Source: Dendronephthya gigantea
Lineage: Eukaryota
Reading direction: 5' to 3'
NCBI RefSeq assembly: GCF_004324835.1
Contig: NW_021163190.1
Coordinates: 319,242-375,850, forward strand
Length of the DNA stretch: 56,609 bases
Shown: piece by piece, positions 2,952 to 55,487 of the stretch
Layout: each line of letters begins with the position of its first letter
Numbering within the stretch: position 1 is the stretch's first letter
The notes under the pieces: model-generated
What the model saw: the letters and a program-made list of their open reading frames with translations, nothing else
The model's database searches: none
Told to the model about the DNA's origin: nothing
Program-made: the position numbers and the translations under genes

Positions 2952-3440
2952 ACATCAACTATCATTGCCTGATTAAAGCATTAAAACAAGAACAAGAGTT
3001 GCATGAGAGTTGACAAGTGAGGGTTTACATGAGAGTTTCATCAACTATCATTGCTTGATCAAACGAGAACTAGAGTTGCATGAGAGTTGACAAGTGAGGG
3101 TTTACATGAGAGTTTCATCAACTATCATTGCTTGATCAAACGAGAACAAGAGTTGCATGAGAGTTGACAAGTGAGAGTTTACATGAGAGTTTCATCAACT
3201 ATCATTGCTTGATCAAACGAGAACAAGAGTTGCATGAGAGTTGACAAGTGAGAGTTTACATGAGAGTTTCATCAACTATCATTGCTTGATCAAACGAGAA
3301 CAAGAGTTGCATGAGAGTTGACAAGCGAGAGTTTACATGAGAGTTTCATCAACTATCATTACTTGATCGAACGAGAACAAGAGTTGCATGAGAGTTGACA
3401 AGCGAGAGTTTACATGAGAGTTTCATCAACTATCATTGCA
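2952..3440 (+). repeat. 77-bp satellite (tcatcaactatcattgcttgatcaaacgagaacaagagttgcatgagagttgacaagtgagagtttacatgagagtt), about 6.3 copies
   Basis: Exact period of 77 measured (copy starts 3038, 3115, 3192...). The same family occurs inverted at 11822..12330 and 19890..20085. Confidence 0.9.
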
Positions 3441-6691: not shown

Positions 6692-6740
6692 GGTAGAGTT
6701 TGGCCTATGGGTTGTGGGTGTGTCTCGCGATGGGGTGGAT
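6574..6740 (-). repeat. 42-bp coding minisatellite, 4 units (tttggcctatgggttgtgggtgtgtctcgcgatggggtagag). The third unit is 41 bp.
   Basis: Unit starts at 6574, 6616, 6658 and 6699. The unit at 6658..6698 has gcgacgggtag instead of gcgatggggtag. Confidence 0.9.
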
Positions 6741-7800: not shown

Positions 7801-7887
7801 AAATAAAATGGGGAAAAATTTTCGCAAATTTTGATAAATTATGATAATATTAGAAGACTTTAAATTATAGTGCTTTCAATGATAGCG

Positions 7888-9275: not shown

Positions 9276-10227
9276 AAAGGCCTAATCCCAACACGGTTGA
9301 TAGAAATGTGAAATAGAAAATTCCGTACAAAGAATGCTGACCAAATATACCAAGACAATTGTCAATATCACTAAGATTATAAACTCACAACCGGCAATAC
9401 TTCATTGAGACAACAACACCTACATGGCGCAGGTTAATATCAAAACGATGTCAGATTTCTACAACATCTTTGGTCGAGAGCTTCTTGGAGTAAAGGAATT
9501 TGGTTTGTCGACGTGTACGTTTAAAATAATCACAAGTCGCAAACATTGATATGTTAATATACTGTAAAAGTTTCCGGTATGGTACCAGAATACTCTAAAT
9601 GATTATACACAATGGACAATGAAGTCTTTGGAGTTTCTTCACGCGCCGTGGAGCGAGGTAAGTGTGTGATTATTTAGTTCATTTATCAAAGCTTTCCCGT
9701 CCGGAAATGTGGCTACTTCCATGGCAAGTATAGAAAACATATTCTGATAAACACAATAATACCATCTGCAATTCTTATTCGTCCATAAATATACTATTCT
9801 TTCCGAAAAAGCGAACATATTTCAGGTAGCCCCATTGTAGAGTGATTAGACTATACTCTCTCTATACTATCAAGAGCATTTAAATCAGAGATCGTAGCTA
9901 AAAAAATCACACAATTTTAGAGAAATCCTTCAAAGAGGAACTTCTGGTTTCGAGTGATCTGTGACGTAAAGACCGTAATGACAAAAAAAATACAAAAAAA
10001 ATATTTAAATCATCAAATATTTTCGGTCAAACACTCGAAGATCGTTTAACCAGTTTATATACCTTGCATTATGTTGTGAACGAAGTTTTAAACAGTATTT
10101 AATGGTTGCTAAACACCAAACGACAAAGGTTTTTTCAAAATATAATCGGGATATAATGAATACAGAAGTATATAGCTTCGATTCAAGGGTAGGTACAGTT
10201 GCTTACTTGCTAAATCAAGTGTATTGT

Positions 10228-10598
10228 GAGATCAGTGGTGCTATATCCAGTTATTATTGGATCAGTGGTACTATATCCAGTTATTATGAGATCAGTGGTG
10301 CTATATCCAGTTATTATGAGATCAGTGGTGCTATATCCAGTTATTATGAGATCAGTGGTGCTATATCCAGTTATGAGATCAGTGGTGCTTTATCCAGTTA
10401 TTATGAGATCAGTGATGCTATATCCAGTTATTATGAGATCAGTGGTGCTATATCCAGTTATTATGAGATCAGTGGTGCTATATCCAGTTATTATGAGATC
10501 AGTGATGCTATATCCAGTTATTATGAGATCAGTGGTGCTATATCCAGTTATTATGAGATCAGTGGTGCTATGTCCAGTGTGATATGAGATCAGTGGAA
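10228..10598 (+). repeat. 30-bp satellite (gagatcagtggtgctatatccagttattat), about 12 copies
   Basis: Direct observation. The long ORFs here are artefacts of the repeat. Confidence 0.9.
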
Positions 10599-11821: not shown

Positions 11822-12330
11822 GAAGCAATGATACTGATAGTTGATGAAACTCTCATGTAAACTCTCGCTTGTCAACTCTCATGCAACTATTGTTCTCGTT
11901 TGATCAAGCAATGATAGTTGATGAAACTCTCATGTAAACTCTCGCTTGTCAACTCTCATGCAACTCTTGTTCTCTTTGATCAAGCGATGATAGTTGATGA
12001 AACTCTCATGTAAACTCTCGCTTGTAACTCTCATGCAACTCTTGTTCTCGTTTGATCAAGCAATGATAGTTGATGAAACTCTCATGTAAACTCTCGCTTG
12101 TCAACTCTCATGTAACTCTTGTTCTCGTTTGATCAAGCAATGATAGTTGATGAAACTCTCATGTAAACTCTCGCTTGTCAACTCTCATGCAACTCTTGTT
12201 CTACTTTGATCAAGCAATGATAGTTGATGAAACTCTCATGTAAACTCTCGCTTGTCAACTCTCATGCAACTCTTGTTCTACTTTGATCAAGCAATGATAG
12301 TTGATGAAACTCTCATAAACTCTCGTAAAT
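11822..12330 (-). repeat. 77-bp satellite, inverted array
   Basis: Reverse complement of the unit at 2952..3440. Confidence 0.9.
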
Positions 12331-18883: not shown

Positions 18884-18952
18884 AGAAGTATATAGCTTCC
18901 AAGCCTTCCATTCAAGGTGGGTAGGTAAAGTTGCTATATCAAGTGTATTGTG

Positions 18953-19625
18953 AAATCTGTGGTGCTATACCCAGTTATTATGAGATCAGTGGTGCTATAT
19001 CAAATTATTATTAGATCAGTGGTGCTATATCCAGTTATTATTGGATCAGTGGTGCTATGTTCAGTTATTATGTGATCAGTGGTGCTATATCAAATTATTA
19101 TTAGATCAGTGGTGCTATATTCAGTTATTATGAGATCAGTGGTGCTATATCCAGTTATTATTGGATCAGTGGTGCTATGTTCAGTTATTATGTGATCAGT
19201 GGTGCTATATCAAATTATTATTAGATCAGTGGTGCTATATTCAGTTATTATGAGATCAGTGGTGCTATATCCAGTTATTATTGGATCAGTGGTGCTATGT
19301 TCAGTTATTATGTGATCAGTGGTGCTATATCAAATTATTATTAGATCAGTGGTGCTATATTCAGTTATTATGAGATCAGTGGTGCTATAACTAGTTATTA
19401 TGAGATCAGCGGTGCAAAACTAGTTATTATGAGATCAGTGGTGCTATATCCAGTTATTTTGAGATCAGTGGTGGTATATCCCGTTATTATAAGATCAGTG
19501 GTACTATTTCTAGTTATTATGAGATCAGTGGTGCTATATACAGTTATTATGAAATCAGTGGTGTTATATCCAGTTATTATGAGATCAGTGGTGCTATATA
19601 CAGTGCAATATGAGATCAGTGGAAT
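18953..19625 (+). repeat. 30-bp satellite, paralogous array of about 22 copies
   Basis: Same unit and same flanks as 10228..10598. Confidence 0.9.
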
Positions 19626-19889: not shown

Positions 19890-20085
19890 TCTCGTTTGAT
19901 CAAGCAATGATAGTAGACGAAACTCTCATGTAAACTCTCGCTTGTCAACTCTCATGCAACTCTTGTTCTCGTTTGATCAAGCAATGATAGTTGATGAAAC
20001 TCTCATGTAAACTCTCGCTTGTCAACTCTTGTGCAACTCTTGTTCTCGTTTGATCAAGCAATGATAGTTGATGAAACCATGGTTT
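19890..20085 (-). repeat. 77-bp satellite, paralogous shorter array
   Basis: Same unit, preceded by the same ~130-bp unique segment as 11640..11770. Confidence 0.9.
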
Positions 20086-24494: not shown

Positions 24495-24988
24495 TATATG
24501 AATATAAGTGTCGTTGCAGCTACACCCTATATATTCTTCCATGGCCTCTGGGCAATACTGACAATCAAACGAGACCTGGTAGCTATATTATGAAATAAAC
24601 TAGTCCTTTATTTGTTACATAAAATCAATGAAAACTTCATTGTTCACTTCAACCCGTCACTTCCACCGACGAATTAGTTGGATAATTGAAGTAATAATGA
24701 ACCGTAATTAGATGCTAATTGCTCGCATTAAAGTTTGTAAAATGATTCATTTTGTCACAACGTTCGGCGATCGACAACGAACAGTCAGTTGAAAGCGAAT
24801 ATCTCCATTCAATATAATCTCTTTGTTGAACCGAAAATTTTCAATACGATTTCAAGTTTTTCTTGGCAAGTTTTATTTGCTCTTTCGTACGCGAAAAAAT
24901 TGACAAGTTTTCCTTGACAAGGAGCCTTGTTCAAAAGCTAGTCATGACTTCAAAAGCTTTTCAACAGGCAAAAATGCTCTTGTAACCG

Positions 24989-25500
24989 CGCAGTAGGGAA
25001 CAGCGCAGTAGGGAACAGCGCAGTGGGGAACAGCGCAGTAGGGGACAGCGCAGTGGGGAACAGCGCAGTAGGGGACAGCGCAGTAGGGAACAGCGCAGTA
25101 GGATACAGCGCAGTAGGATACAGCGCAGTAGGGAACAGCGCAGTAGGGAACAGCGCAGTAGGGAACAGCGCAGTAGGGAACAGCGCAGTTGGGAACAGCG
25201 CAGTAGGGGACAGCGCAGTAGGGAACAGCGCAGTAGGGAACAGCGCAGTGGGGAACAGCGCAGTAGGGGACAGCGCAGTAGGGAACAGCGCAGTAGGGAA
25301 CAGCGCAGTAGGGAACAGCGCAGTAGGGAACAGCGCAGTAGGGAACAGCGCAGTAGGGAACAGCGCAGTTGGGAACAGCGCAGCAGGGAACAGCGCAGCA
25401 GGGAACAGCGCAGCAGGGAACAGCGCAGCAGGGAACAGCGCAGTAGGGAACAGCGCAGTAGGGAACAGCGCAGTAGGGAACAGCGCAGTAGGGAACAGCG
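24989..25500 (+). repeat. 15-bp minisatellite (gcgcagtagggaaca), about 34 copies
   Basis: Copy A has a single copy of the motif at the orthologous site (~13530). Confidence 0.9.
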
Positions 25501-27074
25501 CAACAATCTTCGTGCCAATAGAACAGGTTTGTTTTCTTTTGAGGTTTTATCATTTCTGTTTGTTTGGAGATTCGGTCGTATACTCATTTTATCATCCCTC
25601 GTTTTATCGTAAATATACTCCTATTATTGTAAAACTTGTCAAGAAAAAAATGGTCAATTTTTTCGCGTAAACACAAGCAAATAAAACTTGTCAAGGAAAA
25701 CTTGCCCGTCTGTACGGGGCTTTATCAAAATATTCACGCCCACAATCTAACGTTAAATCTTGCCGCAGCCGTAAATGATGGTCGTACTAAACATTAAAAA
25801 AAAAGCCGGCGCGCACGAAAAATGTCACTGGTGAGCATTGGTGTCATGGTCAACCATTCATTTCAATGCATTGAAATGGTGTTAACAGGACAAGCTCACT
25901 ATCATCTGAGGTAAAGACCTCGCGAGGCTGTTAGTTCAGCAAGTTACTCTCGTGTGCGGATCGTTTTCGTGAGGAACTCGCCTCGAGAAGCAAGTTTCTC
26001 ACGTTTGTGGATAGATTTCGGGCGCACACTAGGCAACTAGTGACACGACTCGTGTGCACCGACATTTAAGGCATCAGATCATGATTGACTAACCTTCTGG
26101 CTAATTGTGGTATACTTGTCCTCGCTATTTCGTACTCTTTTATCTCCAATCTGCAAAAGCATTGAAAAAAATGTCACGTACAATTTCCCATTCGGTGTTT
26201 TTTATGGAGTATTGTCTACGCTTTCTGTCGGTGGAATGAATGTTCACAACCGCATCACCAGAATGGTATCAGATGACGTCGAGAAATTATATGAGCCTTC
26301 TGGTATTCGCCTTGTCTCGGTTATATTTGTATAATGAAGAAGGTTGGATTCCTTGGTATGTGAGAAGATAATTTAGAATAGCTTAAGGCGTTTAAAAAGG
26401 CTGCTTTCGCAGGAAGTTTTGCAAGAAGTGTACAGTCCTTCCAACCGGAACTGGTCAGTGAAAATGTACAGACGAGTTTATACATAAGACAACCTAATCA
26501 ATTTAAGGTTTTTGGGCAAAGGTGTTTGTACAAAACTGACTATTAAAATATTGTTTGTCGGTTCCATAATAAACGAAAGGCAGAACTTTAATATTATATG
26601 GGGAGATGCTTTGCGCCTGCATAGTTCTTTAAAATTTGTGCCTGAGTTCTGGGACGTTGAAAATGGCCTTTTTTCGCTATTAGGCAGCAGTTCTTCACTA
26701 TAATGAATAATAAAACCATACCACAAATATAGTAAAGTGCGATCTTGAATTTTTACATTTTTATTGTGTACATGCATTTACCGTATCTATTCGTTTGAGG
26801 TCCACCGAACGACTAAATTCGGTATTCAATATTTGAATCCGAAATGAATTTGTATCATTCACATAAGAATCGGGACATGAAAAGTTCAAAGTCTGAAACA
26901 GGGCTTGCGAGCGTGCATGCGAGAGCTTGAATTTGTAGCCTTTGAGCGCCGCCGCAAGTTCTAAAAATTTAAACAGCACCGCTGTTCTGAAACGACTAAA
27001 TACGGTATATAATACTTGAATCTCAAATGATTTCAACTTGCCCAACTTTTCTAGATTTAAATATTTACGCTTAG

Positions 27075-29630: not shown

Positions 29631-30240
29631 GTCTAGAACTGTCTAGAACTGATAGAGCTATCCAGTAGAAATAAAGTTAGTTTAGTTTAGGTTTCCTCCT
29701 GTAGTAACACTGGATCAATAAGAGATGATCCTTACTGGACCTCTAGGAAGAACAGTTTAGAACTGATAGAGCTATCCAGTATAAATAAAGTTAGTTTAGT
29801 TTAGGTTTCCTCCTGTAGTAACACTGGATCAATAAGAGATGTTCCTTACTGGACCTCTAGGAAGATCAGTTTAGAACTGATAGAACTATCCAGTATAAAT
29901 AAAGTTAGTTTAGTTTAGGTTTCCTCCTGTAGTAACACTGGATCAATAAGAGATGATCCTTACTGGACCTCTAGGAAGAACAGTTTAGAACTGATAGAAC
30001 TATCCAGTATAAATAAAGTTAGTTTAGTTTAGGTTTCCTCCTGTAGTAACACTGGATCAATAAGAGATGATCCTTACTGGACCTCTAGGAAGAACAGTTT
30101 AGAACTGATAGAGCTATCCAGTATAAATAAAGTTAGTTTAGTTTAGGTTTCCTCCTGTGGTAACACTGGATCAATTACTGGACCTCTAGGAAAAACAGTT
30201 TAGAACTGATAGAGCTATCCAGTATAAATAAAGTTGGTTT
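29631..30240 (+). repeat. 114-bp satellite, about 5.4 copies
   Basis: Period counted as 114. Unit: cagtttagaactgatagagctatccagtataaataaagttagtttagtttaggtttcctcctgtagtaacactggatcaataagagatgatccttactggacctctaggaagaa. Confidence 0.9.
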
Positions 30241-30510
30241 ACCATAATTGGAGTAAGTACTCTGTGGGGTTGCCTGTCGCTTGCGACCAAGTTTATAAAT
30301 AAATAAATAAGTTCAGGTTTCCTCCTGTAGTAACCTGGATCAATAATAGATGATTGTCAAAAAGGTTTCTTTCATGGAAATACCCAGCGGCCGGTTACAT
30401 AAAACTCTTAACTTCATTTTCAGCGATTAAATCTAAGTTAACCGGCAAATGTACACTCTTCTTTGGGAATTCTAGCCAGCGCTAAAAGTTAGCTATCGTT
30501 TTAACAATCT

Positions 30511-30751: not shown

Positions 30752-32105
30752 TGACCAGGTGTTCAATTCAAGAGTTGCATGTTTGGACAGGATATGCAAC
30801 ATATGGCCCACGTTAAAATGCATAAGCCGTGAATATAGGCACTTAATATTAACAACAAAATGTTGGGCGATCTTTTCCATGCACGGCTGAACGAAAGCCT
30901 TCGCAGGAAGACAGCAACGCTTGCATGTAGTTTTACGATTCTTTTAAACTATGAATGTTGTTGTCACTTGTTAGAGCAGCCATGCAATGCAGCTTCATAT
31001 ATATAAACAAATCGATCTGATTTGCTTTCAACTCGCAGTAAAAGTTACAAGAGCAGCTCATGGGTATCAGGAAAGGTCGAAAGATTGCGACAAACGATTG
31101 AAGTTTGCATTTAAAGCGATTAATCTGCTTTCCTAGAAGACGATACAGCGATTATTATATTTTTAAAAACAGTTTGTATTAATTTCTTTGGCGGGAAAAG
31201 TATTTGTATGTAAACACGCGCATATTAGCCACAATTTGCGAGTCTCAGAAATTCGTTTAGAATACGGAATTTTGCATTCAAACAATTGAAACAAACTAAA
31301 ATATATTTGCCGCCGAATAAATAGAACTAGCTTTGCAACTGAGCGAGGAGGACTAACGAGTAACGAGCAAGTTCCTTTAAGTTCGTTCCACGAACCACTA
31401 GTGTATGGCGCGTTTACATTTGTCGGATATTTGAACAAAGTGTCTTTCATATATATAATAAACTCGCGTAACCTTGGCTAAATGAATTATGCTATACCCG
31501 TAATCTACAATAACAACAACAAACTCATTCAAATCGCAAACACCATAAATCCTGTGGTTCATAGCACGAGTTCTTTGGTGTATCGACATGACACGATGTT
31601 TGAAGTGTTTTCATACGATACACGCAATAACATCGGTTATAATTTCACAACACAGTGATTTTCAATCAAAATACCTCAGATAAACCGCCTGAACGCCTTC
31701 CAGCCGTCGGGAACAACTCCGAAGCATCTATTAGACGTATTTCAATAAAATATCCCGGTCGCTTACCTTAAATAGTGGTTGATTTTCGAAACAGGCATCT
31801 CTAATGAACTCTGATCCCCATTACACGTCTTCAAGCGATTTGTCTCGTCATGCAAATTTCGTCTTTTATACTTTTAGTTAATTACATACCAGAAGCTACG
31901 GGAAGTCAACGTTGATTGACAAATGGCTCGCAAATGATGACAGATTGCTCTAAGAGCGTATATCCCGTCAATGAGTTAACACGCGTCGTTGGTGAATTGC
32001 CAAGTTGTGGAAATTCAAAAAGGTGAAAGGCTATTATAAAGACGTGATTGTCGCATTTCTCGACCACATACACTACTGAGCTGTTGATGATTAAACGTTT
32101 ACGTT

Positions 32106-32412
32106 TTCTCCTGTAGTAACACTGGATATTGAAGAGATGATCCTTACTGGACGTCTAGGAAGAACAGTTTAGAACTGATAGAGCTATCCAGTATAAATAA
32201 AGTTAGTTTAGTTTAGGTTTCCTCCTGTAGTAACACTGGATCAATAAGAGTTGATCCTTACTGGACCTCTAGGAAGAACAGTTTAGAACTGATAGAGCTA
32301 TCCAGTATAAATAAAGTTAGTTTAGTTTAGGTTTCCTCCTGTAGTAACACTGGATCAATAAGAGATGATCCTAGCTAAACCTCTAGGAAGAGCTATATCC
32401 AGTATAAATATT
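32106..32412 (+). repeat. 114-bp satellite, about 2.7 copies (left arm of an inverted pair)
   Basis: Same unit. Confidence 0.9.
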
Positions 32413-32794
32413 GTTGTGATTAGTTTTAAGTGCTCAAGTAGGTGACAAAGTCTTTAAACAGTTTAGCAATGCAAATTTTTAGCGGAAAAGGTTTATCATT
32501 TTCTGTCCATAAAACACCAGAAAGGCTGCGCGTTTCCTTTGCTGTGCAATCGTGTTTAGCCTCTTTGCGTTCTGACGGAGAAGGGAAATTCCTAGCTTTA
32601 TACTTCCATATTTGACAAGTTCCTAACCGACCCAGAAACGTCATTTTTTTGTTCTTGCGTTATAACATTGAAAACGAAATTGATCTGACGTTTATTAGTT
32701 GACTGCTAGTGGTTTTCAAATCACTGAAATTGACATTCGGATATGATTAATCGGCTTAGAGTAGAGAAGATATATATTAGATTAACCGCATTAG

Positions 32795-33222
32795 AGGTTC
32801 GGTAAGGATCATCTCTTATTGATCCAGTGTTACTACAGGAGGAAACCTAAACTAAACTAACTTTATTTATGCTGGATAACTCTATCAGTTCTAAACTGTT
32901 CTTCCTAGAGGTCCAGTAAGGATCATCTCTTATTGATCCAATGTTACTACAGGAGGAAACCTAAACTAAACTAACTTTATTTATACTGGATAACTCTATC
33001 AGTTCTAAACTGTTCTTTCTAGAGGTCCAGTAAGGATCAACTCTTATTGATCCAGTGTTACTACAGGAGGAAACCTAAACTAAACTAACTTTATTTATAC
33101 TGGATAGCTTTATCAGTTCTAAACTGTTCTTCCTAGAGGTCCAGTAAGGATCATCTCTTATTGATCCAGTGTTACTACAGGATGAAACCTAAACTAAACT
33201 AACTTTATCTATACTGTTATAA
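32795..33222 (-). repeat. 114-bp satellite, about 3.8 copies in inverted orientation (right arm)
   Basis: Reverse complement of the unit. Confidence 0.9.
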
Positions 33223-38300: not shown

Positions 38301-40411
38301 TTCTTGATTTTCGTCCGATCAAATACCGCGATAAAGTTGGAGCCAGTCCGTTCTGCGCATGTGCTGTATCAGACAACTCATCTGCGAACGAAGGTGACAA
38401 TCTTGTTGAATTGTTTTCGTATATGCCACCATCTTGACCACGGATACCTTCAAAGACTCAAAACTAAATGATTCAAAAAAAGGGTTAGTACGTTCAATTC
38501 GATGCTATTTTGAGCTCTTGTTTCAAATTGTCAATGTTTCTGTTGTTCTATGTAGTGCAATTGGTCAGGAATTGTTGGGCATTATCGTTAGGTGCCTTCG
38601 GATATCTTTGTTCGAAGTCATGTAGTGGTTAACATGCAAAACACACCACCCCATTCCAATACCCCATCAACAGAGGGTTCAAATTATATACCAGTTCACT
38701 CAATATTCGAAGCAACCAGTTTAAACCATCACAGGATCAGAGTGTGCCAAACCACGAAAATAGTCAATCGAATATCGAAGAGGATTTTTAAAAAAGGATC
38801 GAGTCTATGCGTCAAAATAATTCAGGAATAATTTTTGTTTATACCGTGAGAAAAACCGAACATTAATTACTACTACAGCGAAATTTGTCCAAAAATTTGA
38901 TTAGGTTTTGAAAAGTTTTATGTGTCTTATATAAATAAATATTACAGTAAAGTCATGTGCAAAGTCGTGATGCAATGTAATGCAATGTGTTTCAATGTTA
39001 TTCAATTATTTTCAAATATGAGAAAAAAATCAGTGCTAAATGTCCTTCAAAATTTCCGCCATTTTTTGTCCAAAGCGCTGATATATAACACGTATATAAT
39101 CGCTTTGGTTTGCAACTTGCACCGGATGCTACATTAGATCCGAGCTTGTCGCGCATGCGCATCGCAAATCGCATTACCGCTGGCATCTAAGCTTGACAGG
39201 TCATCTGTCATCAAGCGCCCTACACAAGGATATTCAAATATATTTAGTTAGACCACCAGGCGAGTTCGACTTCAGAACAAATAATGATATTATTCATGCA
39301 TTGACTACGAAAGTTCTGAAGTCGATATCTAACTATAATACCTATAGTACCTATAGTATAAACCTGAATGAGCTTCCTCTTCACTTGAAACAGCTACTCC
39401 ATCCATTATCGAAGCATCTTTTTAATCTCCACAGCCTCCAATCGCACTCTAGTATCCGCGCTGACTTGTATCTCCAAGTAAGTCCAGTTGATATACATCG
39501 TCATCAGTCATGCGTAGATCACACTCCAGTATTCGTGCTGACGTGTGTCCCCCAAGTCAGTCCAGTCGATATACAACACCACCAGTCGTCTCTTCATCCA
39601 ATGCTCATCGTAGGCTCCAGTTCGCGGGTCTGTCTGCTCGCCAAGTCACCCACTTGTCGTACGCAAATACAAAAATGCTTCTATGTGCCCTTTTCAGGCG
39701 AAAATATTCCGTCGAAAATTAAGTAATCTTAATCAGAAATCAATTTATCGCAACTTATTTCATGAATTGTTGCCATGCAGCCAAATTACCTATGTTTTAA
39801 AAGCAAATCTAACGTACTTGGTTCGTTTTGTTCACTCGAAAACAGACATGCATACACAACAGCAAATTTTCAATTTTGCCGAAATAAATAAATAAACAAG
39901 AACACAAAATAAATAGATTAAACCGTTAACAAAGCGAAATACGTTTTCTTTTTCTTTTTAAAAACTTTTTGTGTCCTCTCTTACAGACGAAAATATTTTA
40001 TAGAAATCTGAAATCGTAATCGAAACCAACAATAAATTTATCCCAACTTTAAGAATTTTTTGTCCGCGCAACCATTTTATTTCAAAACTTTATTTTTTGG
40101 TTCAGTTTTTCATTTATTTAAAAGCAACGTGTCACAGTCACACTCACAAGTTCTCTTCTAAATTCTCATGCATCACGAATTAAGTTTTGAGCCGCTATAA
40201 AAGCGACATAATTTTCCCCCATTCCGCGCCTATTGAATCGAGCATGAAAAATACGAATGAGGGGCCCCTATCATTCGTATTTCTCGTGCCCAAAACACCA
40301 GTTCTTAATCCAGGGTTGGCCAATAAAATGTAAACCGAAAATTGAAGAATAAGGATCGAACAAGCGAGTGAATTATAGATTTATAGTCAATAGACACACG
40401 TTGATAGAAGG

Positions 40412-41000
40412 AAATGAACAACACGTTTTTAGAATGAAATCGAAATGAACAACACGTTTTTAGAATGAAATGAACAACACGTTTTTAGAATGAAATGAAC
40501 AACACGTTTTTAGAATGAAATGAACAAACACGTTTTTAGAACGAAATGAACAACGCGTTTTTAGAACGAAATGAAGAACACGTTTTTAGAATGAAATGAA
40601 CAACACGTTTTTAGAACGAAATGAACAACACGTTTTTAGAATGAAATGAACAATACGTTTTTAGAACGAAATGAACAACACGTTTTTAGAATGAAATGAA
40701 CAACACGTTTTTAGAATGAAATGAACAATACGTTTTTAGAACGAAATGAACAACACGTTTTTAGAATGAAATGAAGAACACGTTTTTAGAATGAAATGAA
40801 CAACACGTTTTTAGAACGAAATGAACAACACGTTTTTAGAACGAAATGAACAACACGTTTTTAGAACGAAATGAACAACACGTTTTTAGAACGAAATGAA
40901 CAACACGTTTTTAGAACGAAATGAACAACACGTTTTTAGAACGAAATGAACGACACGTTTTTAGAACGAAATGAACAACACGTTTTTAGAACGAAATGAA
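40412..41000 (+). repeat. 25-bp satellite (acgtttttagaatgaaatgaacaac), about 23 copies
   Basis: Direct observation. Confidence 0.9.
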
Positions 41001-42040
41001 CTCAATTGAAACATAATTTTGTCGCTTACTATAGCAGCCTTTACGAGGCGAAAACTTGGTCGTAATTTTTGGAATATATTTAGTATTTGCTCACATTTAG
41101 TGAATGACTTGCATACAGCGATTTCATCATCTATAAAAAAATTAAGATCATTAGACATCTGGGTTATAAACTGTATGTTTCTCGGGGTATCATTTGATCT
41201 CATTTCATTGTTTGAGAAACACGGATTATCTTGAAATTCACCCGAGCAAAGAATCAATAAAAACAGATCGAATAATACCTTTTTGCTTTGTTGAGTTCAC
41301 TGCGATTAAAGCTCGACAGGGGACACACGAGTTCTTCAAATTTCGACGCTTTTCCTCGATGATTTTCGCTCTAAAATACAGAGAATTATTAACACTACTA
41401 GTAACGTCTAGTCTTTACCAAAATATAAAAGCAAATTTGAATTTATTATGAGCTTTGATGCGTGTCCCAACCGTAAACGAATGTTGTTTTCAACAAGGAA
41501 TTTTCAACATGCGATTACTTGGTTATTTCTCGCGATAATGGCAATAAAAATATACTGTTAGAAAGCTAAATAAGTCCTCTATCTCGCTACGTAAAAGTTA
41601 AATCGATAAATTCAATATTTAATGCATTACGACATGTTAAACTTGCTGCTTCATTTTAACGAGACAACCTAAATTACTGATTTGAATTAAAACAAAGGAA
41701 TCCATAAGCTACCTCTTTGTGAAATCATAACTTGATCAGTCTGTCCGTTGAACATCTATCCTTTTAAGCTCTTCAGATCCTTAGATATTAGTATTTTCTT
41801 CTGATACTAATACTTTCTTCGCAAGTTTTGTTCCACTTCGACCATCCCGTTGTACTGATTAAAACGAAGCGCTATTCAGAAAGCCTCAAACTTTTATAAC
41901 CTGTTTGAATCTCCCGCCTGGCGCATAAATGAATAATAAAGATGCTTTTCATTGGTCAAATTGCACCAAATTACTTCCTTCGATCCTTCATAGTTTACAA
42001 CAGGGTCATCAGTTGGAATAACAAGTACGATCGTACAATA

Positions 42041-45400: not shown

Positions 45401-46198
45401 CTAATAATTATATTTAACAGTGATAAAATTACTAAATCGTTCTGTATTTGTTTGTAGTTGTCGGCTTCCGTGTTCATGCCTCAAATTATATTCATTGGTA
45501 GAAACGCTAGTCTGTCTTTCAATTGCATCACGAGGGGGGTTAATTGTAACATTATCTTCTTTTAATTTATTTATAAATAATTTGCAAGAACTATCTCTCC
45601 GTGACCATAAAGTTTGGAGTCCAATATGGTTCAGTGCGTTTGCATACGACAAATCTGGGATAATAATACGTAGAGCTCTTTTTTGAATGGATTCGATCAT
45701 GTCCGACTGCTTCTTCGTTAACGCTGACCATGCTGGGTACTCCAAACAAGGCCTAATAAAGGTGGAATATATAGTTACGAGATTCTTGACACTTAGTCTG
45801 GCTTTTTTTAATTGTCGCAAAGCATAAAGCCTAGAATTCGATTTTTTGATGACATAATCAACGTGATCAAACCAAGAGAGATCATCCCTCAACTATACTC
45901 CAAGCAATTTAACCGATTGTACCAATTCACCGTCAATATAGATTGGATTCCCGTACGGGAGTTCATATTGGAGAAAGGATATACTCATATCTTTACACTT
46001 CTTAGAGTTTAATTTCATTCCTCTGGCAGATGCAAACTGGGAAATTTCATTTACGAGAATGGGCATAAGGCTGGGGGAGCAACGGTGAATAACTTCCAGG
46101 GCGCTTGTGTCATCAACATACTTAATTCGCGCGTTCCAATCTTTCAGAAGGGAATTCAACCATGGTCGAGTTCGCCGGAAAACGACTAATTCAACCAT
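45401..46198 (-). pseudogene. Fragment of a non-LTR (LINE) reverse transcriptase, with one in-frame stop
   Basis: Has YVDD (the YXDD motif), then GMKLNSKKCKDM, then ...KLLGV*MRDDLSWFDHVDYVIKKSNSRLYALRQLKK. From my recollection of LINE RTs, the usual consensus there is LGVxIDxxLSWxxHI...RLxxLRxLK. The two listed ORFs are contiguous in one frame across a stop at 45893-95. Confidence 0.7.
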
Positions 46199-46609
46199 GG
46201 TCGAGTTCGCCGGAAAACGACTAATTCGACCATGGTCGAGTTCGCCGGAAAACGACTAACTCGACCATAGTCGAGTTCGCCGGAAAACGACTAATTCGAC
46301 CATGGTCGAGTTCTCCGGAAAACGACTAATTCGACCATGGTCGAGTTCTCCGGAAAACGACTAATTCGACCATGGTCGAGTTCGCCGGAAAACGACTAAT
46401 TGGACCATGGTCGAGTTCTCCGGAAAACGACTAATTGGACCATGGTCGAGTTCTCCGGAAAACGACTAATTGGACCATGGTCGAGTTCTCCGGAAAACGA
46501 CTAATTGGACCATGGTCGAGTTCTCCGGAAAACGACTAATTGGACCATGGTCGAGTTCTCCGGAAAACGACTAATTGGACCATGGTCGAGTTCGCCGGAA
46601 AACGACTAA
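46140..46609 (+). repeat. 35-bp satellite (accatggtcgagttcgccggaaaacgactaattcg), about 13 copies, beginning seamlessly inside the LINE RT sequence
   Basis: The unit read on the minus strand encodes VELVVFRRTRPW, which is the N-terminal peptide of the LINE ORF fragment. Confidence 0.9.
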
Positions 46610-46778
46610 AGGCGGATCTCCACTTACAGCGAAATCGTTCGCCAGCGAAATATTTGCATATTTTCTTTTGAATTTTAACAGCATAAATAAATTAGTTCGA
46701 CTTGACTGTTCTCAATTCAAAAGAAAATATGCAAATATTTCGCTAGCGAACGATTTCGCTGTAAGTGGAAATCCGCCT
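46610..46778. mobile_element. Tourist-like MITE with 3-bp TAA TSD, inserted in the 35-bp satellite
   Basis: TAA at 46607-09 and 46779-81. Removing the element restores the satellite unit cgactaactcgacc. Confidence 0.8.
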
Positions 46779-46832
46779 TAACTCGACCATGGTCGAGTTC
46801 GCCGGAAAACGACTAATTCGACCATGGTCGAG
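46779..46832 (+). repeat. 35-bp satellite, the segment between the MITE and the copia element
   Basis: Same unit. Confidence 0.9.
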
Positions 46833-47154
46833 TGTTAAAGTATGCTCTATTATATTCCAAATATTCCAATATATATGTATCAATCAACTGTAAATAGATT
46901 TAATTTAGATTTATGAGTGATCAAATGATTCCATAGATTCCATAGATGCAAGTGTAGTAAATGTTTCTTTAATGAAAGCCAAATATGGTAACCAAATGTA
47001 AAATGAAATGTTATCCGTCCTAAAGAGATTATCATGTAACCACTTATATATAGATGTAACTTTCCTTGTATACATCAGAGTGAATAAAACTGTGTAACCC
47101 TAAAGTTGTGCTGTGAATATAAAGGAGTGGCAAATGGCTACCCAAAACTCAACA
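46833..47154 (+). repeat. copia 5' LTR
   Basis: About 2 mismatches over 322 bp against the 3' LTR. Confidence 0.9.
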
Positions 47155-47353
47155 GGTTATGGGCCCAGGAGAGCTCTGGTCTTCGATGGAAACGAATCGA
47201 AGTACGAATTATGGGAGGTAAAGTTTTTATCCTTTATGCGGATCCAAAAACTTTACAACTATTTTTGTGCCTAGCAGCGATGAGCGTGAGCTAGATTAGT
47301 CGAAGAATGCCGATGCCTTCGCCGAACTTGTACAGTGTTTAGATGACCGAAGC

Positions 47354-50300
47354 TTGTCCCTAGTCATAAGGGAGGCAAAAGATGAGGGTCGAAAGGCTTT
47401 AACAGTGCTGAGAGAGCACTACCAAGGAATAGGAAAACCCCGAATTATAGCCCTGTACACCGAACTTACTTCACTGAGAAAGGGGGAAAGCGAGTCAACA
47501 ACGGACTACATCATACGAGCGGAGACCGCGGCGACAGCGCTGAAAGCAGCAGAGGAAATAATAAGCGACGGCTTATTAATTGCAATGGTTTTGAAAGGCC
47601 TTCCTAGGAACTATAAAACATTCTCTACTGTGATAATCCAACGAGAAAAGCAGATGACATTCAGCGAATTCAAAATAGCCCTGCGAAACTACGAAGAGAT
47701 TGAAAAGAGTTGCCATGGTACGGAAGGCAAAGACAACGTGATGTATGCCGCCAAGACGAAATTCGACGGAAAATGCTTCAAATGTGATAAGAAAGGTCAT
47801 AAGAGTTCCGAATGTTGGCTAAAGAGCGAAAAATGGTGTGCCAAATGTCGAACCAAGACCCACAATACAAGAGATTGTAGAGCCGCAAAGAAGGACGCAG
47901 CGAAGCTTATCAACGGACAAGTGAAGAATCAAGATTTGGATGAACATTCATTCGCATTTACGTTAAAAGATGGTAAAGGTAGGAGTACGAAGAATTCGAA
48001 GCTTCTCGTGGACACTGGGGCGACCAGCCACATAATTAATGATAGGTCTAGGTTTGTAAGCTTTGACAAGAACTTTGATCCGAACAGTCACTTTATAGAA
48101 CTTGCCGATGGAAGCAAGGCTAACGTAGTTTTAGGGAAGGGAAATGCAATGGTTAAATTGTTTGATGTAAGGGGTAATGTACAAAATCTAATGCTAAGCG
48201 ACGCACTTTATATACCGTCCTACAGTCAAAATATTTTTTCAGTTTCGGCAGAAATAGGTAGAGGAGGATCGGTTGCTTTAGGAGAACAGGTAAGTAAATA
48301 CACTACAGCTGAAGGTCAGGTATTTGAGATAGAAGAGAGAGAGCGTTTGTACTATTTAAATAGTATCTCTTCTTCGTGTAACAATGCTACCTCCATTAAT
48401 GAGTGGCACAGGATTTTAGGCCATTGTAACTTTGGAGATGTGCGTAAATTAGAGCAGGTAGTCAAAGGGATGAAAATCATAGACCACAGCGAGAAAGATT
48501 GTGAAGTATGCATTCAAGGAAAGATGTGTCAGAATAGAAACCGAGAGCCAGATCAGAGAGCTAAAGCACCTTTAGATTTTGTCCACTGTGACTTGGCAGG
48601 GCCAATTGAGCCCGTTGCCAGAGACGGATTTAAATATGCATTGTCTTTTATAGACGATTATACAGGTATCAACATGATATATTTCTTAAAGCGAAAGAGC
48701 GACACTTTAGAAGCCACAGAAAAATTTTTGGCCGATGTTGCGCCTTATGGTAAAGTTAAAAGGATACGAAGCGATAATGGTGGTGAGTTTACGAGTCAAG
48801 AATTTAAATCTCTCTTACGAAAGCAGTCAATAAGACACGAGACGAGTGCCCCGTATTCCCCTCACCAAAATGGAACTGCAGAAAGAGCGTGGCGAAGCCT
48901 TTTTAGCATGGCTAGGTGCTTGCTATTGGAGGCAAAACTACCAAAACGGTTGTGGACCTACGCTGTGATGGCTTCAGCCTACATAAGAAATAGATGCTTC
49001 AACCAACGCTTAGAGAAGACACCATTTGAGGCGTTGACAGGTAAGAAACCAAATTTAAATAATATGCATGTATTCGGCACAACACGCTATGCTTTTTTGC
49101 AGAACACCAAGAAAATAGACGCAAAGAGCCGTAAAGGTATATTTATAGGGTACGACAGAGGTAGCCCATCTTACTTGATATACTATCCGGAATTAGACAA
49201 GATAGAAAAGGTACGTTGTGTCAAATTCATTGACAACTTCCAAGGCAAAGACAATAAACTCAACGATCTTGATGAGTTTGTACCCGCCAGAAAACCTTCG
49301 AGTACTAGCAATGAAAACCCCAAAATGCCGAGTACAGTTGAGGAGAGCTCGAATAATCTCGAAACAATCAGCGAAAATGTAACAAACAACACCGAGGTGG
49401 TTGCCGAGGGAGATAGGTATCCAACAAGAGTTCGCAATAAGCCAAATTATTTCGATCAAAGCAAATTAGATGACACATTAGGTGAGAATGTTAATTACAC
49501 TGTTGATTATTGCTATAGAGTTGCGAACATTCCAGTGTGCTATAAACAAGCACTTGAGTTGCCTGAGGCAAACAAATGGCAAAAGGCAATGGAAATTGAG
49601 ATGAAAGCGTTGACAGATAATGACACTTTTGATTTAGTACCGCGACCTAAGGATAGACAGGTAGTGGGGGCAAAGTGGGTTTACACTATAAAAACAAATC
49701 AAGAGGGAGAGGAAAAATATAAAGCTAGATTTGTAGCGAAAGGGTATTCTCAAGTTTCAGATATAGATTACCAAGAAACGTTTGCACCAACTGCACGCAT
49801 GAGTTCGATCCGAATGTTATTACAACGTGCCGTGCAAAACGACATGATTATTCACCAAATGGATGTGAAAACAGCATACCTTAATGCGCCAATCGACTGC
49901 GAAATATATATAGAACAACCTGAAGGTTTTGAAAAGCGAAATGATAGCGGTGAAACGTTAGTTTGTAAGCTGAAAAAGTCGCTATATGGTCTAAAACAAA
50001 GCGGCAGGAATTGGAATAATCTACTCCATCAATATTTGATTAACGAAAACTTTATTCAATCTCTTGCAGATCCATGTGTGTATGTGCGTACAATAGATGA
50101 TAAACGATGTGTGATCGTAATCGTTTGGGTCGACGATATCATAATCGCCTCGAGTGATTCAAATTCACTACAGAGCGTGAAAAAGTCTCTTAAAGAAAGG
50201 TTTAAAATGACCGACCTAGGGATTCTAAAATGGTTTTTAGGCACTGAATTTCAATGCAGTGAAAACACAATTAAAATGAGTCAAACCCGGTACATTGAAA

Positions 50301-51088
50301 AGATTCTTGAGAAATTCAAAATGACCGATTGTAAGCCAAAGCCGACGCCGTGTGAGTTAGGAGTAGACAAAGTTTTGGAAGTGGAATCTCCTGAAATGGA
50401 GGACCCCGGGCTTTATAGAGCTATAGTAGGTAGTCTCATATATGTAATGACTGGCACTAGGCCAGATCTGTGTTACATCGTGACAAAATTGTCACAGAAA
50501 ATGTCAAAACCAACCCAGGCAGATTTAACTAAGGCAAAGCACGTTTTGAGATATCTAAAAGGTACTTCAAAATTTGGTCTAACGTTCACAAAGTCCATTA
50601 ACCCCCTCATTCTTCAAGGTTTTTGCGATTCAGATTGGGGAGCATCTATCGCAGATAGACGGAGTATAACAGGATACAACTATCAACTAGCGCAAAAGGG
50701 ACCGTTGATATCATGGAAGAGTCGCAAACAGCCGACAGTGGCACTATCCACCTGTGAAGCGGAATATATTGCATTGACAAACGCGATGCAAGAAGCAAAA
50801 TTTCTGAAACAACTCTGCATCGACATGAAGGTAAGTATACATGAAGGTAAGGCTTTCATAAAGATAGATAACCAGGGAGCGATGAATCTGGCGAAGAATC
50901 CTATTCATCATCAGAGAACAAAACATATAGACATCAGGTACCATTTCATTAGGGAAGAAGTGAAGGAAGGACGAGTTAGTTTAGAGTACGTTTCAACAGA
51001 GGAAAATATTGCAGACATATTTACAAAGCCAGCCAGTAAAATAAAATTAGAAAAATTTAAAGAGACCATATTAGGTAAGTATACATAG
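47354..51088 (+). CDS. copia Gag-Pol polyprotein, 1244 aa, uninterrupted
   Basis: CCHC knuckle CFKCDKKGHKSSEC. Protease LVDTGATSH. Integrase HHCC (HRILGHC...CEVC) and D,D,E (HCDLAGP, FIDDYTG, ...PHQNGTAER). RT ...VWVDDIIIA. RNase H DSDWGAS...TGYNY...STCEAEYIAL. Confidence 0.92.
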   Translation: MSLVIREAKDEGRKALTVLREHYQGIGKPRIIALYTELTSLRKGESESTTDYIIRAETAATALKAAEEIISDGLLIAMVLKGLPRNYKTFSTVIIQREKQMTFSEFKIALRNYEEIEKSCHGTEGKDNVMYAAKTKFDGKCFKCDKKGHKSSECWLKSEKWCAKCRTKTHNTRDCRAAKKDAAKLINGQVKNQDLDEHSFAFTLKDGKGRSTKNSKLLVDTGATSHIINDRSRFVSFDKNFDPNSHFIELADGSKANVVLGKGNAMVKLFDVRGNVQNLMLSDALYIPSYSQNIFSVSAEIGRGGSVALGEQVSKYTTAEGQVFEIEERERLYYLNSISSSCNNATSINEWHRILGHCNFGDVRKLEQVVKGMKIIDHSEKDCEVCIQGKMCQNRNREPDQRAKAPLDFVHCDLAGPIEPVARDGFKYALSFIDDYTGINMIYFLKRKSDTLEATEKFLADVAPYGKVKRIRSDNGGEFTSQEFKSLLRKQSIRHETSAPYSPHQNGTAERAWRSLFSMARCLLLEAKLPKRLWTYAVMASAYIRNRCFNQRLEKTPFEALTGKKPNLNNMHVFGTTRYAFLQNTKKIDAKSRKGIFIGYDRGSPSYLIYYPELDKIEKVRCVKFIDNFQGKDNKLNDLDEFVPARKPSSTSNENPKMPSTVEESSNNLETISENVTNNTEVVAEGDRYPTRVRNKPNYFDQSKLDDTLGENVNYTVDYCYRVANIPVCYKQALELPEANKWQKAMEIEMKALTDNDTFDLVPRPKDRQVVGAKWVYTIKTNQEGEEKYKARFVAKGYSQVSDIDYQETFAPTARMSSIRMLLQRAVQNDMIIHQMDVKTAYLNAPIDCEIYIEQPEGFEKRNDSGETLVCKLKKSLYGLKQSGRNWNNLLHQYLINENFIQSLADPCVYVRTIDDKRCVIVIVWVDDIIIASSDSNSLQSVKKSLKERFKMTDLGILKWFLGTEFQCSENTIKMSQTRYIEKILEKFKMTDCKPKPTPCELGVDKVLEVESPEMEDPGLYRAIVGSLIYVMTGTRPDLCYIVTKLSQKMSKPTQADLTKAKHVLRYLKGTSKFGLTFTKSINPLILQGFCDSDWGASIADRRSITGYNYQLAQKGPLISWKSRKQPTVALSTCEAEYIALTNAMQEAKFLKQLCIDMKVSIHEGKAFIKIDNQGAMNLAKNPIHHQRTKHIDIRYHFIREEVKEGRVSLEYVSTEENIADIFTKPASKIKLEKFKETILGKYT

Positions 51089-51184
51089 GTTCATAATTGC
51101 GCATATAATTTTAAAGCGATGGCCCGCCCTGCTGCACGCCATCAAATAAATAATTTACTATAGAACATAAAGAGCAAGTGGGGG

Positions 51185-51506
51185 TGTTAAAGTATGCTCT
51201 ATTATATTCCAAATATTCCAATATATATGTATCAATCAACTGTAAATAGATTTAATTTAGATTTATGAGTGATCAAATGATTCCATAGATTCCATAGATG
51301 CAAGTGTAGTAAATGTTTCTTTAATGAAAGCCAAATATGGTAACCAAATGTAAAATGAAATGTTATCCGCCCTAAAGAGATTATCATGTAACCACTTATA
51401 TATAGATGTAATTTTCCTTGTATACATCAGAGTGAATAAAACTGTGTAACCCTAAAGTTGTGCTGTGAATATAAAGGAGTGGCAAATGGCTACCCAAAAC
51501 TCAACA
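51185..51506 (+). repeat. copia 3' LTR
   Basis: See the 5' LTR. Confidence 0.9.
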
Positions 51507-51775
51507 TCGAGTTCGCCGGAAAACGACTAACTCGACCATGGTCGAGTTCGCCGGAAAACGACTAACTCGACCATGGTCGAGTTCGCCGGAAAACGAAACT
51601 CGACCATGGTCGAGTTCGCAGGAAATCGACTAACTCGACCATGGTCGAGTTCGCCGGAAAAAGACTAATTCAACCATGGTCGAGTTCGCCGGAAAACGAC
51701 TAACTTGACCATGGTCGAGTTCGCCGAAAAACAATATGTCCAATTGGCCGGAAAACGACTAATTCGACCAGGGGA
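51507..51775 (+). repeat. 35-bp satellite continuing 3' of the copia element, about 7.5 copies
   Basis: Same unit. Confidence 0.9.
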
Positions 51776-53527: not shown

Positions 53528-53539
53528 GTGAGTCAGTAG

Positions 53540-54350
53540 ACATCTCTTTAATACAGACATCTCTCTAATACAGACATATTTCTAATACAGACATCTTTCT
53601 AATACAGACATCTCTCTAATACAGACACCTTTCTCTAATACAGACATCTCTCTAATACAAACATCTCTCTAATACAGACATCTCTCTAATACAGACATCT
53701 CTCTAATACAGACACCTCTCTAATACAGACATCTCTCTAATACAGACATTTCTCCAATACAGACATCTCTCTAATACAGACATCCCTCTAATACAGACAA
53801 CTCTCTAATACAGACATCTCTCTAATACAGACATCTCTCTAATACAGACATCTCTCTAATACAGACATCTCTCTAATACAGACATCTCTCTTATACAGAC
53901 ATCTCTCTAATACAGGCATCTCTCTAATACAGACATCTCACTAATACAGACACCTCTCTAATACAGACACCTCTTTAATGCAGACATCTCTCTAATACAG
54001 ACACTTCTCTAATACAGACATCTCTCTAATACAGACATCTCTCTAATACAGACATCTCTCTAATACAGACATCTCTCTAATACAGACATCTCTCTAATAC
54101 AGACACTTCTCTAATACAGACATCTCTCTTATACAGACATCTCTTTAATACAGACATCTCTCTAATACAGACACCTCTCTAAAACAGACATCTCTCTAAA
54201 ACAGACATCTCTCTAAAACAGACATCTCTCTAAAACAGACATCTCTCTAATACAGACATCTCTCTAATACAGACATCTCTCTAATTCAGACATCTCTCTA
54301 ATACAGACATCTCTAATACAGACATCTCTAATACAAACATCTTTGAAGAC
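53540..54350 (+). repeat. 17-bp intronic satellite (acagacatctctctaat), about 45 copies, in tetraspanin intron 1
   Basis: Direct observation. Confidence 0.9.
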
Positions 54351-55265: not shown

Positions 55266-55280
55266 GTATTGTACTGTATG

Positions 55281-55487
55281 ATAGAGTTATCCAGTATAAA
55301 TAAATTAGTTTAGTTTAGGTTTCCTCCTGTAGTAACACTGGATCAATAAGAGATGATCCTTACTGGACCTCTAGGAAGAACAGTTTAGAACTGATAGAGT
55401 TATCCAGTATAAATAAAGTTAGTTTAGGTTTCCTCCTGTAGTAACACTGGATCAATAAGAGATGATCCTTACTGTACCTCTAGGAAC
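55281..55487 (+). repeat. 114-bp satellite, about 1.8 copies inside a tetraspanin intron
   Basis: Same unit. Confidence 0.9.

Follow-up and report, generated by a model that had tools for sequence, protein, structure and literature searches.

Positions 46833 to 51506 of the 56.6-kb stretch of DNA analysed here (the window) very probably hold a 4674-bp Ty1/copia (Pseudoviridae-type) LTR retrotransposon, inserted fairly recently in a metazoan-like genome and with a gag that is broken near its start. The element is ordinary, full-length, and young, and is a new member of an already known kind of retrotransposon; it opens no new biological question. Its main value lies in annotation, as it gives the exact boundaries of a metazoan copia lineage that has its start codon in the LTR.

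Boundaries, cis signals, and coding content

The limits of the element are set by the following features:

46828-46832, + strand: left TSD copy, TCGAG, identical to 51507-51511
46833-47154, + strand: 5' LTR, 322 bp, TGTT...AACA, differing from the 3' LTR at two positions
51169-51184, + strand: polypurine tract (PPT) AAAGAGCAAGTGGGGG, abutting the 3' LTR
51185-51506, + strand: 3' LTR, 322 bp
51507-51511, + strand: right TSD copy, TCGAG

The two LTRs show exactly two mismatches (47018 T/C and 47060 C/T; 99.4% identity) and have ends of the TG..CA type, as in Ty1/copia elements, and the 5-bp TSD is within the 4-6 bp range of this group. When the element and one TSD copy are deleted, the flanks close up in register to a perfect 35-bp satellite unit; the TSD is therefore real and not a chance match inside the satellite repeat. 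The element was inserted into a 35-bp satellite array. A reading made from the letters of the DNA alone (the sequence-only reading) had reported 322-bp LTRs with about two differences, a perfect 5-bp TSD, and a recent insertion, all of which agree with the LTR comparison and the rebuilt empty site. The first 16 nt of the LTR, TGTTAAAGTATGCTCT, are common to the relative L001. Outside the element, BLASTN and TBLASTN searches detected neither another copy nor a solo LTR in the window, and no Rfam family reached its gathering score anywhere in the window. Elsewhere in the window, ORFs without recognised domains are present at 3452-7875.

The 5' LTR contains a TATA-like TATATATA (47045-47052) and a single AATAAA (47083-47088), and the 15-nt core of the PPT, AAGAGCAAGTGGGGG, is identical in the relatives L001 and L002. 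The TATA, AATAAA, and purine-rich tract noticed earlier were all recovered. The primer-binding site (PBS) lies directly 3' of the 5' LTR and the PPT directly 5' of the 3' LTR, which is the layout of Ty1/copia elements. Transcription would start past the TATA box of the 5' LTR and end past the AATAAA of the 3' LTR, the PPT would prime the plus strand, and the integrase would generate the 5-bp TSD.

Most of the interior is taken up by one open frame (47300-51085, 1262 codons), in which the following were located:

47300-51088, + strand: open remainder of gag-pol, 1262 codons and a TAG stop (Pfam and motif coordinates)
47303-47704, + strand: Gag core
47774-47815 and 47837-47878, + strand: two CCHC knuckles
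48002-48031, + strand: protease (PR), DTGA
48407-48523, + strand: integrase (IN) zinc finger, H-x4-H/C-x2-C
48566-48862, + strand: integrase core (Pfam rve)
48590-48883, + strand: integrase catalytic residues D431/D492/E528
49619-50353, + strand: RT
50456-50947, + strand: RNase H

In residues of this frame, the Pfam matches follow each other as Retrotran_gag_2 (2-135), Pol_BBD (236-317), gag_pre-integrs (350-409), rve (423-521), and RVT_2 (774-1018); SH3_retrovirus was also matched in the polyprotein, and RNase H motifs were found at residues 1053-1216. The domain order is gag-PR-IN-RT-RNase H, with the integrase upstream of the RT, as in Ty1/copia. The RVT_2 match (E=2.2e-80; 270 bits vs. a cut-off of 31.6) indicates an RT of the copia type and not of the gypsy/retroviral type (RVT_1), a class assigned by family-model match and not by full phylogeny. 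The RT catalytic residues (D855 and the VDD at 944-946) and those of RNase H (D1110/E1153/D1190/D1211) are in place, and all invariant columns of a 110-sequence alignment are kept in the window ORF. The element had been called Ty1/copia and credited with all catalytic motifs, and both statements are borne out, the latter for the CCHC, PR, IN, RT, and RNase H residues alike. A PDB sequence search returned Ty1 integrase (7z0h) as its best match; this search gave integrase matches only and no copia capsid entry. PR-IN-RT-RH as a whole, like the cis signals, appears functional in this copy.

The interrupted start of gag

Upstream of the open frame, three features were found:

47134-47274, + strand: stranded first part of gag, MATQNSTGYGPRRALVFDGNESKYELWEVKFLSFMRIQKLYNYF.. 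in translation, ending at a TAG (47272-47274) past the frameshift
47260-47266, + strand: insertion of one nt (T47260 or a T within the run 47262-47266), seen as a single extra base in the alignment with the relatives L001, L002, and L012
47297-47299, + strand: in-frame TAG in place of a sense codon, which is GCA in L001 and L002

The gag ATG at 47134 (context AAATGG) lies in the U5 of the 5' LTR, in a frame that differs from that of the main ORF, and the gag N-termini of the relatives (MATSTNLTGYGPRRGLVFDGNESKYELWEVKFLAFMRIQKLY...) can be aligned with the peptide that precedes the window ORF in this other frame. With the extra base removed, the peptide reads KLYNYFVPSS here vs. KLYNIFVPSE in the related protein P0002; further on, relatives have ELDATKNA and ELDAAKNA where ELD*SKNA stands here. 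The insertion and the TAG thus sever the 1262-codon frame from the first 55 codons of gag, which begin in the LTR and are conserved in relatives, and gag-pol does not run uninterrupted from an authentic start codon. The sequence-only reading had described a gag-pol of 1244 codons with no interruption, a count that takes a TTG of bacterial style as its start; an ATG first occurs in this frame at codon 96. With an ORF scan that starts from the first 'start' codon past a stop, a broken element may appear intact. What stands of the 'intact' element is its full length, its boundaries, the positions of PBS and PPT, and its pol; the start of gag is broken, and the description as a candidate active element fails for the sequence as given. 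Since gag is severed from its start codon, the copy cannot make normal Gag or Gag-Pol. As sequenced, the copy would not be autonomous and is probably inactive on its own; at best, it might be mobilised in trans by intact relatives.

Both lesions are known from one assembled sequence; the insertion, possibly located in a T5 run, may be an assembly error. It is nevertheless very unlikely that faulty assembly or sequencing produced both the extra T and the TAG in an element that is in fact intact throughout and autonomous. The extra base can be placed in the five-T run at 47262-47266, a typical site of long-read indels, the LTRs are 99.4% identical, and the remaining 1262 codons are open with every invariant residue kept; however, a homopolymer error would not give the TAG, which requires a base substitution, it is improbable that two independent errors fall within 40 nt when the rest of the 4.7-kb element is clean, and about 12 real internal substitutions are expected anyway from the two LTR differences.

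The decay expected since insertion amounts to about 12.5 substitutions and about 0.64 nonsense mutations, and the amount of damage fits the age of the element. Both lesions fall in a 40-nt stretch of a 3.9-kb ORF, a clustering that simple uniform decay does not predict. This clustering, together with an untouched pol and perfect cis signals (LTR ends, PBS, PPT), would suit an element that was already defective before insertion, i.e., a non-autonomous one that was packaged and reverse-transcribed in trans with the Gag and Pol of intact family members and whose lesions are family-wide rather than the result of decay after insertion. Such an origin is considered unlikely, as the window holds no second copy to show shared lesions, the number of lesions is what post-insertion decay predicts, and an intact 3.8-kb pol would not be kept for long in a purely parasitic lineage. 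With still less probability, the clustered gag lesions may represent a functional variant, either as a trans-mobilised non-autonomous sublineage or through an N-terminally truncated Gag(-Pol) that would be made from the internal ATG at 47585 and disturb the way in which intact relatives assemble their particles, much as p22, the copy-number-control factor of Ty1, does (PMC4599808).

Removal of the interruption by splicing is scarcely credible. A putative 82-nt intron that opens with GTAAAG at 47218 and closes with the AG at 47298-47299 would have a good donor (GAG|GTAAAG), and excision of 47218-47299 would fuse codon 28 to the main ORF in the correct frame, delete both stops, and yield a Gag-Pol lacking 27 residues. 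Yet the segment encodes residues that are conserved in all relatives (VKFLxFMRIQKLY..VP..DE.ELD) and read there as plain coding sequence, the acceptor has no pyrimidine tract, and one in three random donor/acceptor pairs restores the frame. Programmed recoding was also considered, and was rejected as the main explanation.

Half-tRNA primer-binding site and conservation in the lineage

The preferred reading, a fairly recent insertion with a broken gag, includes a start of gag that spans the end of the LTR and the following site:

47155-47168, + strand: PBS GGTTATGGGCCCAG, inside the gag ORF and translated G-Y-G-P, complementary to nt 26-39 of tRNAiMet

The letters past the 5' LTR are ggttatgggcccagg, as read before. 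GGTTATGGGCCCAG is the exact reverse complement (14/14) of nt 26-39 of initiator tRNA-Met, in the anticodon stem-loop. The pairing stretch of the tRNA is CTGGGCCCATAACC in the human tRNAiMet printed in PMC8216282 and PMC12775451, which may differ from that of the host. No other 14-mer of the window matches that tRNA; no tRNA genes were found by ARAGORN in the window or in 82 related loci. Being complementary to an internal region of tRNAiMet that ends at about nt 39, the PBS belongs to the half-tRNAiMet class already known in copia elements, which disposes of the earlier view of an unrecognisable and perhaps unusual primer. It is not unusual for the Ty1/copia superfamily and is a classic Drosophila-copia-type site; the PBS of Drosophila copia itself is the same GGTTATGGGCCCAG. 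By analogy, the minus strand would presumably be primed by the 5' half of a tRNAiMet cleaved after nt 39. Half-tRNAiMet priming was shown biochemically in Drosophila copia (Kikuchi 1986, as cited in PMC10275265), and half-tRNA-Met PBSs are described for Osser, Bryco, and Gymco-II among plant lineages (PMC6317226).

The homology search returned 554 relatives at E<=1e-10, the best of which (1314 aa) is 78% identical in protein; the nearest element found has 78% identity in protein and 76.5% in DNA, and the element family appears to differ at least from everything retrieved in this search. Members of the lineage were seen in a crab (Scylla), a sea spider (Pycnogonum), and a cyprinid fish (Cirrhinus), and in many further assemblies. 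Twenty-two related loci carry the 14-mer GGTTATGGGCCCAG without variation, 20 of them at the gag start. In 20 loci with 39-78% protein identity to the window ORF, ACA|GGTTATGGGCCCAG is invariant and lies 147-175 nt upstream of the match to window-ORF residues 1-4; it is read as T-G-Y-G-P in all loci with a comparable gag start (20/20), and an in-frame ATG precedes the LTR end by 12-36 nt in 18 of the 20. GYGP is present near the N-terminus in 86 of 109 related proteins, and in nine loci at <=38% identity the PBS 12-mer was not found upstream of gag. LTRs and TSDs could be compared with those of two relatives, L001 (TSD ATTTT) and L002 (CCTTT/CCTCT), most short metagenome contigs being unsuitable because of indels and wrap-around assemblies.

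Taken with the element itself, these alignments make it highly probable that a large lineage shares a single gag-pol ORF of about 1300 codons with its start codon in the U5 of the 5' LTR. This ORF runs across the LTR end and the PBS, and the PBS is complementary to nt 26-39 of tRNAiMet. A half-tRNAiMet PBS that doubles as coding sequence (T-G-Y-G-P) offers a quick signature of the lineage and locates the true start of gag.

Position among known copia-type elements

Drosophila copia is not known to have its start codon in the LTR or a translated PBS, both of which are found in the lineage of the present element. In architecture and PBS, the two are otherwise alike in having a single gag-pol ORF, the order PR-IN-RT-RH, a 5-bp TSD, short LTRs, and a PBS that pairs with the internal anticodon stem-loop region of tRNAiMet instead of its 3' end (PMC10275265). 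Yeast Ty1 is likewise of the Ty1/copia type, with a tRNAiMet primer and a PBS inside the GAG ORF (PMC4974528); it differs in that its bipartite PBS uses the 3' end of an intact tRNA, in contrast to the half-tRNA PBS found here, and in that its separate GAG and POL frames are linked by a +1 frameshift, in contrast to a single ORF. Osser, Bryco, and Gymco-II share the PBS class of the element (type 1/2 tRNA-Met; PMC6317226) but are plant or green-algal, whereas its named relatives are from animals (Scylla, Pycnogonum, Cirrhinus).

In host range, the named relatives (from a crab, a sea spider, and a cyprinid fish) are like those described for Hydra, CoMol, and CoMar, which are aquatic metazoan Copia clades (PMC6238403, PMC8556966, PMC11889832). 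Clade assignment is based on grouping with reference RT/RNase H sequences at a bootstrap of at least 70 (PMC11889832); for clade naming, PBS data were not found in GyDB-type descriptions. The GalEa clade was ruled out, as the PBS of the element is GGTTATGGGCCCAG, vs. the TGGTAGCAGAGC (3' end of tRNA-Met) that is strictly conserved in metazoan GalEa (PMC5445492, PMC3587641); none of the related loci has TGGTA[TG]CAGAGC upstream of gag. GalEa-like elements that have been described in full, e.g., CoRex1, also encode gag and pol in two separate ORFs (PMC3587641, PMC5445492).

The copia element and its boundaries

The 4674-bp Ty1/copia LTR retrotransposon at 46833-51506 (+), here the copia element, is young, full-length and correctly delimited, with cis signals and pol intact and the gag start broken. 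It was annotated as follows.

46828-46832 and 51507-51511: target-site duplication (TSD) TCGAG, flanking both ends
46833-47154, +, 322 bp: 5' LTR, direct repeat, starts TGTT, ends AACA
47045-47052: TATA-like TATATATA in the 5' LTR
47083-47088: AATAAA in the 5' LTR, single occurrence
47155-47168, +, 14 nt directly after the 5' LTR: primer-binding site (PBS) GGTTATGGGCCCAG, exact reverse complement of initiator tRNA-Met (tRNAiMet) nt 26-39
47300-51085, +: open gag-pol frame (window ORF), 1262 codons open
51185-51506, +, 322 bp: 3' LTR, direct repeat, starts TGTT, ends AACA

The sequence-only reading had described 322-bp LTRs with about two differences, and repeat comparison gave exactly two mismatches (47018 T/C and 47060 C/T). 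The TATA and AATAAA signals that it had reported were both located, and its purine-rich tract was found as AAAGAGCAAGTGGGGG, directly adjoining the 3' LTR. It had also claimed a perfect 5-bp TSD; a chance match was considered here, as TCGAG also occurs inside the surrounding 35-bp satellite unit. Since the left and right flanks, minus one TCGAG, rebuild a perfect in-register satellite unit (AATTCGACCATGGTCGAG joined to TTCGCCGGAAAACGACT), TCGAG is a genuine 5-bp duplication and the insertion point is precisely defined. The assigned boundaries are further supported by the related element at locus L001 (LTRs 99.4% identical), which has the same first 16 LTR bases (TGTTAAAGTATGCTCT), the same polypurine tract core (AAGAGCAAGTGGGGG), and likewise a 5-bp TSD (ATTTT).

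In the window ORF, the order of Pfam domains, namely, Retrotran_gag_2, Pol_BBD (protease region), gag_pre-integrs, rve, SH3_retrovirus, and RVT_2, is the Ty1/copia arrangement; among solved structures, the Ty1 integrase 7z0h is the best match. As far as family models can tell, the RT stays within Ty1/copia, where it had been placed from sequence alone (RVT_2, E = 2.2e-80). All catalytic motifs had been said to be present, which holds true: the protease motif LLVDTGATSH, the integrase residues H370/H375/C401/C404 and D431/D492/E528, the RT residues D855 and VDD 944-946, and the RNase H residues (TRPDL, D1110, E1153, D1190, D1211) were located, as were two CCHC knuckles, and every invariant column in an alignment with 109 relatives is kept.

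A translated primer-binding site and a broken gag start

The primer had been called unrecognised and possibly unusual. Comparison with tRNA halves, as then suggested, was the right test, and the exact complementarity to tRNAiMet nt 26-39 (anticodon stem 5' strand, anticodon loop, and two 3'-strand bases) points to a PBS of the half-tRNA type, a known class. The tRNAiMet sequence used is human, as printed in PMC8216282 and PMC12775451, and may differ from that of the host; the PBS is its only 14-mer match in the whole 56.6-kb window. Drosophila copia likewise pairs with an internal stretch of tRNAiMet, a 5' fragment of which was demonstrated to prime it (Kikuchi et al. 1986, as cited in PMC10275265), and among plant copia lineages the same PBS class is typical of Osser, Bryco, and part of Gymco-II (PMC6317226). 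As in Ty1, where the PBS lies inside the GAG ORF (PMC4974528), the site would be translated.

Related loci were compared, comprising two close relatives (L001 and L002) and 80 from metagenome contigs. In 20 of them (39-78% protein identity), the match begins at window ORF residues 1-4 and upstream DNA is present; ACA followed by GGTTATGGGCCCAG lies 147-175 nt upstream of the match in 20/20, the base following the 14-mer is variable, and an in-frame ATG occurs 12-36 nt upstream, within the LTR, in 18/20. GYGP is found within the first ~18 residues of 86/109 related proteins, the others being mostly gene calls begun at an internal Met. This conservation across loci and proteins defines the lineage: gag-pol is a single ORF that begins at a U5 start codon, and the half-tRNAiMet PBS is translated. 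The motif was not found upstream of gag in nine loci at <=38% identity, in which the match reaches the gag N-terminus with >=260 nt of upstream sequence. The same 14-mer also occurs in L066 (about 3237) and L072 (about 2535), at 32-35% identity and away from the gag-match start, with ACA/ATA before GGTTATGGGCCCAGG at the junction; these may reflect nested or wrap-around assembly, or else belong to a second, more distant lineage sharing the PBS.

The uninterrupted 1244-codon gag-pol of the sequence-only reading does not stand. Those codons run from TTG 47354, which is the first bacterial-type start to follow a stop, and the long frame has no in-frame ATG before codon 96 (nt 47585). The closest relative proteins, P0001 and P0002 (78% and 76% identical to the window ORF; both 1314 aa), begin MATSTNLTGYGPRRGLVFDGNESKYELWEVKFLAFMRIQKLYEVFVPGADERELDATKNA, and their N-terminal peptide is found in a different frame, which reads MATQNSTGYGPRRALVFDGNESKYELWEVKFLSFMRIQKLYNYF from ATG 47134 in the 5' LTR and ends at TAG 47272-47274. 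This ATG has a good context (AAATGG) and is the only one in the LTR downstream of 47054, i.e., past the TATA box, and would therefore be the first of the inferred transcript. DNA alignment with three relatives indicated one extra base, either T47260 or a T within the run 47262-47266; when it is left out, the gag peptide reads KLYNYFVPSSDERELD. In addition, TAG 47297-47299 replaces GCA of the two closest relatives. With both lesions separating ATG 47134 from the window ORF, the copy as sequenced would be unable to produce normal Gag or Gag-Pol.

The two LTR differences correspond to a Jukes-Cantor distance of 0.0062 and an insertion age of roughly 0.3-3 Myr at an assumed, not host-calibrated, 1e-9 to 1e-8 substitutions per site per year. 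Over that time, the 4030-bp internal region is expected to gain ~12.5 substitutions and the ORF ~0.64 nonsense mutations, so one stop and one indel are unremarkable in number. Both lesions (47260-47299) lie <=40 nt apart in the first 55 codons, and the other 1262 codons are clean. Uniform decay would not predict such clustering (n = 2, viewed post hoc), for which one local mutational event, a defect already carried by the source copy, or chance could account.

Family and host range

Element families are usually delimited by the 80-80-80 convention. The nearest retrieved element is 78% identical in protein and 76.5% in DNA over 3970 nt, with LTRs aligning at the ends only, and the copia element thus belongs to a family distinct from everything retrieved. 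A homology search of the protein collection gave no match above 78% identity, and neither a second copy nor a solo LTR was found elsewhere in the window. P0001 has at least ten full-length members (1313-1314 aa) on different contigs, making activity of sister families in their own hosts probable; this says nothing direct about the element's own family. Where members of the related clusters are named, their hosts are Scylla crabs, the sea spider Pycnogonum litorale, and the carp Cirrhinus mrigala. This host range consists mainly of aquatic animals, as has also been described for Hydra, CoMol, and CoMar (PMC6238403, PMC8556966, PMC11889832). The GalEa clade was rejected, as its PBS is TGGTAGCAGAGC rather than GGTTATGGGCCCAG; fully described GalEa-like elements (e.g., CoRex1) also have separate gag and pol ORFs, in contrast to the single ORF here (PMC3587641, PMC5445492). 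The copia element is a further member of a familiar type, of low interest beyond annotation.

Repeats around the insertion

Repeats of many kinds make up a mosaic across the window, in which a tRNA gene search and an Rfam scan found no tRNA gene and no Rfam family. Three tandem-repeat families recur at several sites in both orientations; families and coordinate groups are both listed in threes, with units in the order 77, 30, and 114 bp.

2984-3439, 11835-12325, 19890-20077: first-listed family
10208-10596, 18932-19622: second-listed family
29635-30241, 32097-32391, 32792-33216, 55279-55486: third-listed family
24984-25502 (15 bp), 40396-41001 (25 bp), 53538-54342 (17 bp): other tandem arrays

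At 3452-7875 (minus), long open frames (1097 aa and 403 aa) with Pro/Thr-rich internal repeats (e.g., RETHPQPIGQTLPH) contain no Pfam domain and could represent a host gene exon, a mobile-element protein of unfamiliar type, or frames that are open across repeats by chance.

The 35-bp satellite at the insertion site (46153-46609, 46779-46832, and 51507-51732; unit AACTCGACCATGGTCGAGTTCGCCGGAAAACGACT, containing the 16-nt palindrome CTCGACCATGGTCGAG) is interrupted just upstream of the copia element by an inverted repeat at 46603-46785 (72-nt arms 46603-46674 and 46714-46785, 94% complementary, 39-nt spacer), possibly a foldback or MITE-like insertion or else an array inversion junction. Two neighbouring ORF fragments at 45404-46255 (minus) are similar to the C-terminal portion of the RT from non-LTR retrotransposons (weak RVT_1 match around YVDDT, ALKBH8_N-like tail); because they adjoin and overlap the start of the satellite, the latter might be the 3' tail array of that element. 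One satellite unit is cleanly split by the copia element, and the L002 element likewise lies within a short-period tandem array; the lineage may prefer satellite DNA or may simply be tolerated there.
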